9,302 bases of DNA from a virus (IMGVR_UViG_2537561977_000032), one strand, 5' to 3'. Positions 1 to 4,311 are shown, numbered from the stretch's first letter. Numbers and translations are program-made. Notes: generated by a model not told the origin, from the letters alone.

Positions 1-996
1 CTAACGAACCAGCCAGACCAGCATCAGGATAATCGCGACTAACAGTATCCACAGCGCGGGACGCGTTGCCATATTTTGCAACGTGTCCATCATCGGTGGA
101 AAAGGATTAAGCAGCGGTTGCATATCACGCGGATCAATCCCTTTAACCCGCCGTTGATAAAGCTGATTAAGAATATCCTCGGCCTGGGCAGAAGAAAGCG
201 ATGATTGCGCAGAAAGACCATATTTTTGGTGGATATACGCCGATAACGCTGCCAGTTCACTGGCATCTAAAGGTTGTTTTAGCGCCATCTGTAGTGATTC
301 CAGCGTCGGCGTATTTTGCTGGCTTAACGTCTGGCGCGCCTGCAACCAGGTCACCAGATGGTTAAACAGTTTCGCTGGAATTAACTCGCCATCTTTCACC
401 CCGGAAAGTTCCAGCATCGATTGCCAGATCTGTTTGCTGGGTTCCCCCGTTGCCGCCGCAAGTTTGGTCACCAGCTGTTTTAGCGCATTGTGCTCCGCCG
501 GTAATAAAGGACGGTCGGTCGCCTCGCGCTGCTGTGGTTGCGGAATAACCATCTTCCCTTCCTGCAACAGGGTGAGAATGGTTTTTAATTGCTCCGGTGA
601 GAGCTGATTCAGCGGCGTCTGACCAAAGTTATGACGGATATAATCCGTGACCGCCTGACGATTATTCCCCAGACGTAAATACTCCCCTAATTGCGCTAAA
701 AGCTGGCGGGCAGAATGGCTTTTTTGCGCGGCCAGCAGACGTTGCGCCAGATTATGCTTAGCGGCAGGGAAGTGACGCGAAAGCAGCGGTGAATCTCCCG
801 ACAGACCAATATCGTGCCTGATACCCGCCCACAGTTCTGCTCTTTGTTGTTGCGTCAGTGAGGTCACTTTCGTCATTAAGCTTTCCAGCGAAGTACGTTG
901 CTGACTGGATAAAGGCTGATTGCCCGCGCCAGACGGCAGGTTATCTCCCTGACCTGGTGGTTGCCCAGGAGGAGGGCCGGAAATAGGTTGTATCAT
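1..996 (-). CDS. flk: Probable Flk (flagellar regulator, C-terminally membrane-anchored)
   Basis: Complete 331-codon minus-strand ORF, stop TAG at 1-3. P/Q/G-rich N-terminus (MIQPISGPPPGQPPGQ...), Q/L-rich body and a single C-terminal hydrophobic segment (ALWILLVAIILMLVWLV), matching the size (about 331-333 aa) and tail-anchored topology of enterobacterial Flk. Identity is from recall, not a search. Confidence 0.6.
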   Translation of the reverse strand: MIQPISGPPPGQPPGQGDNLPSGAGNQPLSSQQRTSLESLMTKVTSLTQQQRAELWAGIRHDIGLSGDSPLLSRHFPAAKHNLAQRLLAAQKSHSARQLLAQLGEYLRLGNNRQAVTDYIRHNFGQTPLNQLSPEQLKTILTLLQEGKMVIPQPQQREATDRPLLPAEHNALKQLVTKLAAATGEPSKQIWQSMLELSGVKDGELIPAKLFNHLVTWLQARQTLSQQNTPTLESLQMALKQPLDASELAALSAYIHQKYGLSAQSSLSSAQAEDILNQLYQRRVKGIDPRDMQPLLNPFPPMMDTLQNMATRPALWILLVAIILMLVWLVR

Positions 997-1200: not shown

Positions 1201-1227
1201 AGCCCGCAACATTGCGGGCTTTGTCTT
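1201..1227. terminator. GC-rich hairpin next to the methyltransferase stop; possible intrinsic terminator
   Basis: Stem AGCCCGC(1201-1207) / GCGGGCT(1214-1220) with loop AACATT, followed on the plus strand by TTGTCTT. On the minus strand it lies directly after the methyltransferase TAA (1226-1228) but the downstream tract is pyrimidine-rich rather than a clean U-run. Confidence 0.4.
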
Positions 1228-2017
1228 ATGGTTCGATCGCCGTTTTGAGCCGTTGTGTTGCTACATCAAAATAATGATCACTGGTTTCTATACCAATAAA
1301 TTTTCGCCCTGCTTTCAGTGCAGCCACACCCGTTGTCCCTGACCCCATAAAAGGATCAAGGACTGTTCCGCCACTATTCACAGTCCTGACCAGTTCCGCC
1401 ATTAGTTCTTCTGGTTTTCCGGTCGGGTGCATTTTCTTTGACGGGATAACCGGGAACGTCATGCAGCCGTCGAACGGTCCCGAAGGCGATTTATCTAAAT
1501 GGCCTTTGCTGCCCCAGACGATGTATTCGCACTGATGCCGGAAATACCCGGTATGTGGTGTTCGTGACCCCCTCCCCTTGTTCCACGCAATGATTCCGCG
1601 CCATGTAAAGCCACTGGCCTGAAACGCATCGGTTAAAGCTGGTAGTTGTCGCCAGTCAGTAAATACCAGGGCATAACCGCCCGGCCTGACTGCGCGGTGT
1701 GCCTGTGCCATCCATAATTGTGTCCAGTAAGCCCACGAACGGGCGTCCATGTTTTCACCCGCGAACCCATCAAAGCGGTGAAGGTTCTCGCCGTTCAGAT
1801 ATTTTGCATGGCTGCCCTGGTTGGTGCGTCCGGCCTTGTGTGTCGCACCCGAACTGTAAGGCGGGTCAGTGATTAAGGCATCAATGCTTTCTGGCTCAAT
1901 CAGCGGCAATATTTCCAGCGCATTCCCACGACAGAGCGTGGCATTGTCAGTCTGATAAACCTTAGTGTGTTCCGGTGTATGTGCTGGTTGGTGCTGGATT
2001 GCGATCCCCACGGTCAT
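1226..2017 (-). CDS. DNA amino-methyltransferase (beta-class N6-adenine or N4-cytosine), probably orphan
   Basis: 263 aa ORF with catalytic motif IV DPPY (ALITDPPYSS) near the N-terminus and SAM-binding motif I FxGxG (LDPFMGSGTTG) near the C-terminus, the beta-class order. ATG at 2017 is preceded by GAGGAG with only a 2 nt spacer; GTG at codon 3 is an alternative start. No restriction endonuclease partner is visible in the window. Confidence 0.85.
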   Translation of the reverse strand: MTVGIAIQHQPAHTPEHTKVYQTDNATLCRGNALEILPLIEPESIDALITDPPYSSGATHKAGRTNQGSHAKYLNGENLHRFDGFAGENMDARSWAYWTQLWMAQAHRAVRPGGYALVFTDWRQLPALTDAFQASGFTWRGIIAWNKGRGSRTPHTGYFRHQCEYIVWGSKGHLDKSPSGPFDGCMTFPVIPSKKMHPTGKPEELMAELVRTVNSGGTVLDPFMGSGTTGVAALKAGRKFIGIETSDHYFDVATQRLKTAIEP

Positions 2018-2159
2018 AACTCCTCATGTGTGTGGGGTGCTCGATGGCTCTCGTTATCTGGTTAAGTGTTTTGCAGCGCGGACATTTTATTTCAATGTAG
2101 TGAAATGAGGCGCGGGCAAGTAGTTTGTTGCAATTTTTGCATCGTACATTTTGCGTCAT
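1962..2159 (-). CDS. com: Com-like zinc-finger protein (phage Mu Com family, translational activator)
   Basis: 65 aa from ATG at 2157-2159 with SD AAGAGGT 6 nt upstream; the ORF track starts it three codons earlier at GTG 2168. Sequence MTQNVRCKNCNKLLARASFHYIEIKCPRCK closely parallels Mu Com as I recall it (..IRCKNCNKLLFKADSFDHIEIRCPRCK..), a CxxC..CxxC zinc finger. Its 3' end overlaps the methyltransferase start by 56 nt, the same geometry as Mu com-mom. Confidence 0.8.
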   Translation of the reverse strand: MTQNVRCKNCNKLLARASFHYIEIKCPRCKTLNQITRAIEHPTHMRSYDRGDRNPAPTSTYTGTH

Positions 2160-2194
2160 TTGCGGCACCTCTTGTGTGGTTACTGCTGCCGATA

Positions 2195-2246
2195 TGATAG
2201 CAAATCGATCGTTTTTATCGATCGGATTTATTGCATTGATCTATCA
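2195..2246 (-). promoter_or_regulatory. Imperfect dyad with three GATC sites upstream of com-methyltransferase; candidate Dam-methylation-sensitive operator/promoter
   Basis: ATGATAGCAAATCGATCG-TTTTT-ATCGATCGGATTTATTGCATTGATCTATCAT: outer arms ATGATAG/CTATCAT, two palindromic ATCGATCG copies flanking T5, and GATC at 2207-2210, 2220-2223 and 2238-2241. AT-rich, located 35-90 bp upstream of the com start on the minus strand. Confidence 0.45.
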
Positions 2247-2297
2247 TTCCTATTGCTTATGAATAGTGTCACCTTCATTTGTGAGGGCAACAAAAAG

Positions 2298-2333: not shown

Positions 2334-2743
2334 ATGTCTGTGAGATAGGGTGCCGTTTCGACCAACCTTAGCAACCGATTGACGGGGGATTACTCCCCCG
2401 TCGCGGTTATCTTACTTATTACATAGTAAGAATGCCGCAATTTCCGTGCCAGCAAACCTGAATCGTAACTCGCACGGTGATGTGTGGAGGATCCAGATTA
2501 TCGCTACCGCAGTTATGCAAAGTAACAGGGTTTTTAACGGAATTTGCGTCATAACGCTTGTCTCCTGAGAGGAGAGGCGCTAACCTTCTACTTGCGAAGG
2601 TAAGAAGTGTTAGGGCCTCGGTTAAACAAAAATGTTTTCCGGGGCCTTTCCACATCTGGCCTTCGGGTATTCCCTCCGACCATCAGCCGAAAGGCACCCG
2701 CGCGTAATCTATCGCTTTTTTGTTACTCCGGCAATTCTGCCTG

Positions 2744-3004
2744 TTAATTCTGAGATAAAGGCAAACTCATCTGATTGTTTCCCCTGTGTGAAGCTGGCAG
2801 ATCATGCCACGGGATACCTTCTGATGAGTGAACGCCGGAGGCGTGTTTTGATGTGAATTTATGGAAAGCTTCCAGTGTTGAGAAGCATACGCCGCATTCC
2901 AGATTGTTACACTGGTAATACTTTTGCCGCACGGTGTTTGAATCATTTTCCGGACGACTGGTGCGGATACGGGCAGATGCGCCACAAAGCGGACAACGGA
3001 ACAT
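2744..3004 (-). CDS. ogr: Ogr/Delta-family zinc-finger late-gene transcription activator
   Basis: 86 aa; ATG at 3002-3004 with SD GGGAGG 5 nt upstream. N-terminus MFRCPLCGASARIRTSR...YYQCNNLECGVCF has the C-x2-C ... C-x4-C zinc-finger pattern and the MF[HR]CPLC start typical of P2 Ogr and its relatives. Lies 42 bp downstream of gpD on the same strand, as in P2. Longer than P2 Ogr (about 72 aa) with a divergent C-terminal tail. Confidence 0.8.
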   Translation of the reverse strand: MFRCPLCGASARIRTSRPENDSNTVRQKYYQCNNLECGVCFSTLEAFHKFTSKHASGVHSSEGIPWHDLPASHRGNNQMSLPLSQN

Positions 3005-3046: not shown

Positions 3047-4154
3047 TCACTCTGTTTCCGCTATCCATTCCGGGATTTTTGCCTCAAGCTCAAGCTGCGT
3101 GGTAAAGCCGCTGTTATCAATGGTGTGCCCGGCTTTTGCAATGATCCAGTCCTGATTATCAATCTCGCTTTTAAATCCTGTTACCGTGCCATGCATTTCG
3201 GGGTAGAGTTCTGCACGTCCACGCGCCAGCGTGATGGAGAATGATGCGGCTCCGCGTTGTAGTTGCTGCCACTTTGCCGCCGCTGCGCGTCTTGCTGCCT
3301 GCTCGTTCTGATAAGTCTTGCGTAACACAAACACATTGCCTTCCGCGCCTTCCATATAATCACCTTCACGGCTGCTGCTTTTCTCCTTTTTGGGTTTTGG
3401 CGGTTTACGGCGTTTCACGCTGACTTTTTCTTTTCCCGTAATTAAGATCAAGCCAGTAGGCGCGTACCCCCGTATACGCCTCGCGGTCAGCAATGCGGAA
3501 CTGATGGCGATCGCCGCTGCTGCGTGTAATGGCGAACGAGGGCAACGGCTGGCCCTGTGCGTTCACGCCACCACCTGGCATGATGAATAACAGATTGCCG
3601 CTTTTTACCGTGGTGATTGCGCCCAGCATTTCCGCCATGCGCGTAAGGAAGGACATGTCGCTTTCTTCGGTCTGGTCGGCGTGGTCGATTTCGATATCCA
3701 TCAGCATTTCGCTGATTTGCGGTTTCAGACCGTACCGGTGAGCGATGGCGGATACCACACGCTCAATGGTCACATCATGCCAGGACACCTCACGTTTAAC
3801 GTTAAATTCATCCCGAAAATCTGCGCTTCTGGCTGAAACAGTCAGCCTGTCCGGCGGTCCTTCGTGAGCGATTTCATCAACAATATAAGTGCCTTTTTCT
3901 GTCAGTGGTTCTCCTTTCCAGCCAATGAGAACCGTCAGGCGCGCGCCCCGTGGTGGTAGCTGCAACTGACCATCTGCATCATCCAGCGTGATGGTGAGCT
4001 GGTCCGCTTCAAATCCCCGGTTGTCGGTCAGTGACAGGCTCATCAGTCGCTCTGTCACGTCGGGCAGTGTTTCACCTTCCGCGAGAATATCAAAATCCGG
4101 CATTTTCACGGGGTCCGGGCCCTGACTGAGCAATTGCATGGTGGTGTCGGTCAT
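3047..4154 (-). pseudogene. D: gpD-like tail protein (phage late control gene D family), reading frame broken by a 1-nt shift in a homopolymer region
   Basis: Two overlapping minus-strand ORFs: N-part from ATG 4152-4154 (SD AGGGAGG upstream) to stop at 3405-3407, and C-part 3493-3047 in the adjacent frame. The C-part (GNVFVLRKTYQNEQAARRAAAAKWQQLQRG...TGFKSEIDNQDWIIAKAGHTIDNSGFTTQLELEAK) matches the conserved gpD C-terminal region from recall. Frames overlap at 3405-3493, where A/T runs (T5 at 3425-3429, T4 at 3431-3434) are the likely shift site. The track's upstream extension to 4286 (MIRQQ...) is not supported. Confidence 0.7.
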
Positions 4155-4311
4155 CTGTTCCCTCCCTGTGCGGCATGGTCGCATGTGCGTGCGGAGGGGG
4201 TTACTGCTTTTTGTTGTCGCCGTGGCGGGAGAACGGCGCAGGGGTGAGATTACGCGCGTGGTGGGTGATGATTGTTGCCGAATCATTTAACGGATACAAG
4301 GGGCTGAAGCT

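Follow-up and report, generated by a model that had tools for sequence, protein, structure and literature searches.

The DNA analysed here (the window) is a stretch of 9,302 nucleotides from the viral entry IMGVR_UViG_2537561977_000032, and it corresponds to an Escherichia coli chromosome with the right end of a P2-like prophage. Across the region searched (1900-2420), the window matched strain FDAARGOS_943 with 100% identity and phage Chuche with 92%. In the genome of FDAARGOS_943 (NZ_CP065615), the three GATC sites discussed below fall at about 5269333, 5269346, and 5269364. The minus strand carries, in order, gene D, ogr, hok/mok-sok, a terminator, a GATC cluster, com, a DNA methyltransferase gene, and flk. 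Tail gene D, called from ORFs and annotation (3047-4286, minus strand), was split into two overlapping minus-strand ORFs homologous to P2 gene D (3405-4286 and 3047-3493), and the RefSeq record of the identical strain FDAARGOS_943 has a shortened VgrG/Pvc8-family coding sequence and a pseudogene fragment at this place. With gene D split, the prophage may be defective.

The ogr gene (2744-3004, minus strand, PF04606) is followed by a toxin gene of the hok/mok type annotated as Hok/Gef (2412-2552, minus strand), which lies between ogr and the com cassette. A sok-like antisense RNA (2541-2699) matched RF01794 with 47 bits and an E value of 4e-9, below the gathering score of 59 bits. Terminator prediction placed a bidirectional intrinsic terminator at 2299-2326, which is predicted to end the upstream hok/mok transcript and to insulate the com promoter region. 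Directly 3' of the T-run of this terminator we found a second small hairpin, CCCTCA-caaa-TGAGGG (2271-2290, minus strand), which most relatives carry in perfect form and the window in imperfect form, and which is missing from the relatives L085 and L093 and from Chuche; it may be part of the 3' end of the hok mRNA. At the other side of the cassette, the host gene flk (1-996, minus strand, ORF and annotation) is co-directional with the methyltransferase gene and lies only 230 bp downstream of it, and prophage and host DNA meet within the stretch from about 997 to 1225. On the circular phage genome, attP and the integrase gene come after the methyltransferase gene, so the com-methyltransferase pair forms an accessory module at the extreme end of the prophage.

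The earlier note had placed a com-methyltransferase unit downstream of the GATC cluster, and both genes were recognized as such. The com homologue (1962-2159, minus strand) encodes a 65 aa zinc ribbon protein that matched PF10122 (E = 9.5e-12), is named 'Com family' in RefSeq, and shares 60% identity with Mu Com; its Shine-Dalgarno sequence (SD) is AAGAGG at 2168-2173 (minus strand). The following gene (1226-2017, minus strand), whose start overlaps com by 56 nt, encodes a beta-class N6-adenine/N4-cytosine DNA methyltransferase of 263 aa (PF01555) with the motifs DPPY...FMGSGTTG. Comparisons with PDB, NCBIfam, and cluster names for the specificity of this methylase yielded no more than generic matches to the beta class (DpnA, CcrM, and YhdJ-like), none of which reached its family cut-off. 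M.EcoGII, the silent non-specific prophage methylase, was ruled out as the identity of this enzyme, with 349 aa compared to 263 aa here.

Around the start of the methyltransferase gene, a translation-inhibition hairpin, CCCCAC...GUGGGG, was predicted by comparison at 2006-2037 (minus strand), with both the SD (GAGGAG) and the start codon AUG (2017) of that gene inside it. In every cassette examined, a hairpin of the form GAGCAyCCCAC-loop-GUGGG(G) occurred just after the conserved Com residues EHPT, with the SD and the start codon of the enzyme gene in the loop or the 3' arm. The same hairpin was found in Mu and six other cassettes, including Mom and C5-methyltransferase cassettes. The fold of a 101 nt segment had a z-score of -0.78, which was not significant, so the support for the hairpin is comparative. 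In Mu, Com opens the translation-inhibition hairpin of mom, and on the aligned sequences the hairpin at 2037-2006 is read as the positional homologue of that structure.

Upstream of com, a motif scan confirmed the GATC sites that the earlier note had listed at 2207, 2220, and 2238. On the minus strand, the promoter-distal site GATC-1 (2238-2241) lies within the quarter-site ATAGATC and was present in 11/11 aligned relatives. GATC-2 (2220-2223) follows 18 bp downstream and was present in 10/11 aligned relatives, lost only in L090, and GATC-3 (2207-2210) follows after a further 13 bp and was again present in 11/11. GATC-2 and GATC-3 flank the half-site ATCGATAAAAACGAT (minus strand), and the triple lies 48-82 nt upstream of the com ATG (2159, minus strand).

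The earlier note had also called this clustering unusual, with GATC expected once per 256 bp. As an argument from density this is weak alone, since a triple within a 31-bp span arose in 462 of 5000 random windows (Markov-1, same size; p ~ 0.09); across the whole window, 29 GATC sites were observed compared to 31.2 expected, showing no enrichment. What upholds the claim is the exact spacing of 18 + 13 bp, which was found in only 5 of 5000 random windows, together with the match to the OxyR consensus and the conservation in relatives described below. Judged from these sequence comparisons, the arrangement of the triple is not a product of chance. The description of the cluster as an imperfect palindrome stood in part: ATCG-N7-CGAT (2222-2208) forms a dyad matching a single OxyR half-site, but the outer 7-bp inverted repeat ATGATAG/CTATCAT (2194-2200 and 2241-2247) was out of register in relatives. 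We rejected this outer repeat as a functional dyad, and it is probably incidental.

Both strands of the whole window were scanned with the consensus of the OxyR tetramer, ATAGnTnnnAnCTAT-N7-ATAGnTnnnAnCTAT, which has 20 specified positions. The top match was at 2244-2208 (ATAGATCAATGCAAT-AAATCCG-ATCGATAAAAACGAT) with a score of 16/20, and the second-best register (2253-2217, 15/20) was shifted by 9 bp and began at the ATAG at 2253. Two registers thus fit almost equally well, which leaves the precise contact positions of OxyR tentative. Scored in the same way, the established OxyR sites of Mu mom and of agn43 (flu), the antigen 43 gene of E. coli, scored 13/20 and 14/20, respectively, and the maxima of random windows (n = 200) were usually 12-13, with 15 reached once and 16 in 0/200. 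A third OxyR-like half-site, CTATTCATAAGCAAT (2252-2266, minus strand), lies in phase 22 bp upstream, with a score of 6/10 and without GATC.

Direct alignment revealed the pattern ATAG-N8-GATC-N14/15-GATCG-N8-GATCGAT in the window, Mu, and agn43. The GATC sites of Mu (L002; 1160, 1178, and 1191) have the same spacing as those of the window, 18 + 13 bp, and those of agn43 (L003; 818, 837, and 850) are spaced by 19 + 13 bp. Over a 50-bp alignment of the operators, the window shared 68% identity with Mu and 63% with agn43. Both of these are experimentally established OxyR operators (cited in PMC2909390 and PMC4461284). Based on the consensus scan, this alignment, and the conservation in relatives, we predict a Dam-sensitive OxyR operator of 46 bp, ATAGGAATGATAGATCAATGCAATAAATCCGATCGATAAAAACGAT, at 2208-2253 (minus strand). 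This segment is probably an operator of the host's OxyR, a LysR-type regulator, with its occupancy controlled by host Dam methylation of the three GATC sites, and its architecture, as aligned, is homologous to that of the Mu mom and E. coli agn43 operators.

To follow the operator across relatives, we compared 160 loci encoding relatives of Com. Among the viral contigs with Com of at least 71% identity, 31 of 35 kept all three GATC sites, at positions -82/-64/-51 from the com ATG (-83/-65/-52 in L119); one of the remaining contigs lacked GATC-2 and three had a 31-bp deletion between GATC-1 and GATC-3. In L119 (Com 71%), ATAG, the three GATCs, ATAAA, TTTGnTATCAT, the SD, and the ATG were invariant, and the bases between them differed. 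The same elements were invariant in L106 and L165, although the upstream flank was replaced right at ATAG. More distant enterobacterial cassettes (Com 52-65%) retained parts of the arrangement: groups B and C kept the 13-bp GATC pair, GATCGTTTTTRTCGATCGAT, in an agn43-like form, group D had an 18-bp GATC pair, and L009 had the full 18 + 13 triple. No such GATC cluster was present at the com loci of Acinetobacter, Neisseria, Methylophaga, Haemophilus, and others among those fetched.

The deletion variants (L005 and L116-L118) had one or no GATC left and an intact ORF for the 263-aa methylase, so the operator is dispensable for maintaining the gene. The 31-bp deletion apparently occurred between the GATCGAT repeats. 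L005 is labelled as Vagococcus and looks enterobacterial, which may reflect contamination.

The cargo of the cassettes varied. Mom (PF25680) was encoded in Mu, groups B and D, most of group C, and L009; a C5-cytosine methylase (PF00145) in the group-C locus L150 and in L006 (Citrobacter braakii ATCC 51113); and a beta-class N6/N4 methylase (PF01555) in the window and L119. In L150 and L006 (about 1435-2707), the 13-bp GATC pair, com, and the hairpin precede the C5 methylase gene. In L165 and L166 (E. coli STEC313 and MSI001), the cassette is located in P2-like prophages beside raiA, hok and the operator are separated by additional inserted cargo, either a TM2-domain protein or a hypothetical gene in divergent orientation, and the methylase of MSI001 is disrupted by an IS66 element. 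In the IMG/VR locus L157 (1501-2413), the gene behind a com homologue (71% identity over 41 aa) encodes an adenine methylase of the D12 class (Dam-like), and the 150 nt upstream contain no GATC. Overall, the cassette was found in 173 of 5426 complete E. coli genomes (about 3%), and no well-studied strain was evident among the 173.

A sigma-70 promoter of the com-methyltransferase unit was predicted from consensus matches at 2194-2221 (minus strand). It consists of a -35-like TCGATA (2221-2216), a 16-bp spacer, and an extended -10 TGcTATCAT (2202-2194), and it was the only sigma-70-like match within the conserved block, where it overlaps the operator. Every group-A relative kept TGnTATCAT, L119 and the context-swapped L106 and L165 among them. 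Transcription is predicted to start near A2187. Relative to this position, the operator would span about -66 to -21, with GATC-1 at ~-54, GATC-2 at ~-36, and GATC-3 at ~-23; GATC-2 extends into the -35-like hexamer by two bases, and GATC-3 is part of the spacer. A weaker candidate, GTGACA-18-AATGAT (2243-2272, minus strand), also matched the consensus and would start transcription at GATC-1, a geometry resembling that of agn43, and it was downgraded for its lack of conservation among relatives. With either candidate the core promoter would be overlapped by the operator, but whether OxyR represses or activates would differ according to which candidate is used. That the cassette has its own promoter is implied by the terminator upstream of it and by the divergent gene next to it in L165. 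A late promoter of the P2 Ogr type was tried and rejected: TGT-N12-ACA, an element expected to be centred near -55 and a crude criterion whose exact pattern is also missing upstream of the tail-sheath gene, was absent upstream of com, and its sole match in the window lies inside com (2067-2084).

Given that the operator overlaps the only conserved promoter match, repression by occlusion is likely. For this locus we infer OxyR binding, its sensitivity to methylation, the sign of regulation, the promoter position, and the action of Com, and together they would form two successive locks. When the GATC sites are unmethylated, an OxyR tetramer would bind and cover the -35 region and the spacer, blocking transcription; hemimethylated sites are possibly bound as well, by analogy with Mu. 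Methylation by Dam would exclude OxyR and leave the promoter free. The second lock would be post-transcriptional, as in Mu, with the hairpin hiding the ribosome binding site and start codon of the methyltransferase until opened by Com made from the same mRNA. The proposal of the earlier note that the operon is epigenetically gated by host Dam, in the manner of Mu with OxyR, is favoured by the spacing, the consensus match, the alignment, the conservation, and the Com-hairpin layer. The likeness to Mu is only partial, however: the distance from GATC-3 to the com ATG is too short to accommodate a site of the C activator (Mor/C-family), and no similarity to the corresponding Mu segment was found there.

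The predicted overlap of the operator with the core promoter, where no phage activator site would be needed, suggests a further reading. In lysogens, the compact cassette might act as a heritable, bistable Dam/OxyR switch like that of agn43, with the prophage methyltransferase ON in a subpopulation of cells. We put this forward tentatively and with more doubt than confidence. If true, an epigenetic switch would control an epigenetic writer, that is, a 'phasevarion' driven by Dam and OxyR in E. coli, and cells and released phage could carry alternative methylomes and restriction resistance.

Other explanations of the GATC cluster were weighed against control by Dam and OxyR. Dam could act directly on the promoter without OxyR, full methylation or hemimethylation altering the binding of RNA polymerase or SeqA, in which case expression would be coupled to the passage of the replication fork. 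The IS10 transposase promoter and other Dam-sensitive promoters offer precedents, and SeqA binds to pairs of hemimethylated GATCs that face the same side of the helix; here GATC-2 lies on the -35 hexamer and GATC-3 in the spacer of the predicted promoter, and the 31 bp from GATC-1 to GATC-3 correspond to about three helical turns. We nevertheless consider direct action unlikely, as it leaves unexplained the invariant ATAG and ATAAA, the 16/20 OxyR match, and the alignment with two proven OxyR operators, and the Mu triple lies far upstream of its core promoter. Another possibility, raised in the earlier note, is that the GATC sites or their adenines are substrates of the encoded methyltransferase, which would thereby set the state of its own promoter. 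The DPPY motif is typical of N6-adenine/N4-cytosine methylases, methylation of the GATC adenines by the enzyme would lock the promoter open, and some automatic annotations name members of its cluster 'DpnIIB', by similarity only. Against this, the same operator precedes com cassettes with Mom or a C5 methylase as well as agn43, Mom being an adenine acetamido-modifying enzyme and not a methylase, and no family match at a curated cut-off assigned GATC specificity. This independence of the operator from the cargo argues that the GATC sites track host Dam and OxyR, making self-targeting improbable as the primary logic and disfavouring this part of the note; methylation by the encoded enzyme may be an added feedback.

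Dyad elements in the region and the nearby ogr gene could also point to an operator of a phage regulator (P2-type C repressor, Cox, or Ogr) in which the GATC sites are incidental. However, the outer repeat is out of register in relatives, the Ogr-type pattern is absent upstream of com, and the operator is common to Mu-like and P2-like cassettes with different regulators and to the chromosomal agn43 locus, all of which makes a phage regulator very unlikely. Least credible, and in our view highly improbable, is that the sites cluster by chance in an AT-rich intergenic spacer and have no regulatory role. Triples within 31 bp or less are found in 9% of random windows and deletion variants without the sites exist, but the Mu spacing (5/5000) and the consensus match (0/200) were rarely or never reproduced, and the cluster is kept across diverged and context-swapped cassettes, directly upstream of a homologue of Mu com. 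An operator for host OxyR, gated by host Dam, therefore remains the reading that we prefer.

A search of IMG/VR with ATAG-N8-GATC-N14/15-GATCG-N8-GATC recovered at least 120 contigs with at least 71 distinct sequences (L167-L286, for example L181, L189, L220, L202, L186, and L171). Among the matches listed, com cassettes accounted for about one fifth of the distinct operator sequences and about one third of the contigs. The largest class without com among these listed matches lay ~58 nt upstream of a gene for a predicted lipoprotein of 77-83 aa, which had no Pfam hit and stood beside tail-fibre-like ORFs. Other neighbours among the matches listed were a membrane protein of 254-270 aa, DUF1367, Ner-like HTH_35, EAL-like, and UmuC-like proteins. 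These neighbourhoods suggest that operators of the Dam/OxyR type make up a broader family serving accessory genes of phages.

Control of Mu mom by Dam and OxyR is a classic of phage epigenetics and, to our knowledge, is usually treated as peculiar to Mu. The present comparison suggests that operator, com, and translational hairpin travel together as a portable cassette that has been re-used in P2-like prophages, and this front end is paired with at least three unrelated DNA-modifying enzymes, namely Mom, an N6/N4 methylase, and a C5 methylase. In the literature searched, no papers were found on this operator in P2-like cassettes or on this accession, and nothing specific was found on undermethylated GATC sites at such prophage loci. 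Gating by Dam and OxyR could account for the fact that prophage methylases of this kind mostly appear silent when methylomes are surveyed, and an operator predicted to sit on the promoter without an activator site makes agn43-like phase variation of the methyltransferase a concrete hypothesis.

That an adenine methylase gene can take the place of mom downstream of com was known before from Mu-like prophages of Haemophilus and Neisseria, with Com upstream of a DNA adenine methyltransferase in place of Mom in FluMu (Hin1523), Hia5, Pnm1 (Nme1821), and phage B3 (PMC3299994). The enzymes of the Haemophilus and Neisseria Mu-like prophages are alpha-class non-specific adenine methylases, whereas the enzyme here is of the beta class and resides in a P2-like phage.

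Compared to Mu mom, the locus shares an ATAG 12 nt upstream of GATC-1 and the identical 18 + 13 spacing, the overlap of com with the downstream enzyme gene, and the location of the pair at the end of the phage genome. The differences lie in the cargo, which is Mom in Mu and a PF01555 methyltransferase here, with no assignment to PF25680, and in the carrier, a transposable phage there and a P2-like prophage here. The distance from GATC-3 to the com ATG is about 47-51 nt here compared to about 74-78 nt in Mu, where the operator lies at about -99 to -50, upstream of the C site and of a weak promoter with a 19-bp spacer.

The agn43 operator resembles the present one in the pattern ATAG-N8-GATCAAT...GATCG-N8-GATCGAT, with three GATC sites in one OxyR tetramer site, and in overlapping the core promoter and start, as predicted here, instead of lying far upstream. 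In K-12, the annotated start of the IsrC sRNA, just upstream of flu, coincides with GATC-1 of agn43. The two loci differ in that the agn43 operator is at and downstream of the start, compared to the predicted position over the -35 and spacer here, and in that agn43 has no Com or hairpin layer. For P22 gtr, OxyR half-sites in which two GATCs stand 13 bp from each other have been shown to be methylation-sensitive, with repression from the promoter-proximal site, which overlaps the -35 (PMC2909390). GATC-2 and GATC-3 of the window are placed in the same way around their half-site. The gtr (P22 and Salmonella) and opvAB systems are similar to the com cassette as prophage- or island-borne genes with OxyR half-sites that contain 13-bp GATC pairs. 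The gtr regulatory region has four GATC sites, in two pairs in half-sites A and C, and two OxyR positions, one activating and one repressing. A three-half-site switch of the gtr type was rejected for the window, where the third half-site (2252-2266) matched 6/10 positions and has no GATC. By sequence, the promoter geometry is predicted to be closer to that of agn43 and of the repressing OxyR(BC) site of gtr than to that of Mu, and the locus as a whole reads as a straightforward homologue of the classical system with a variant promoter geometry.
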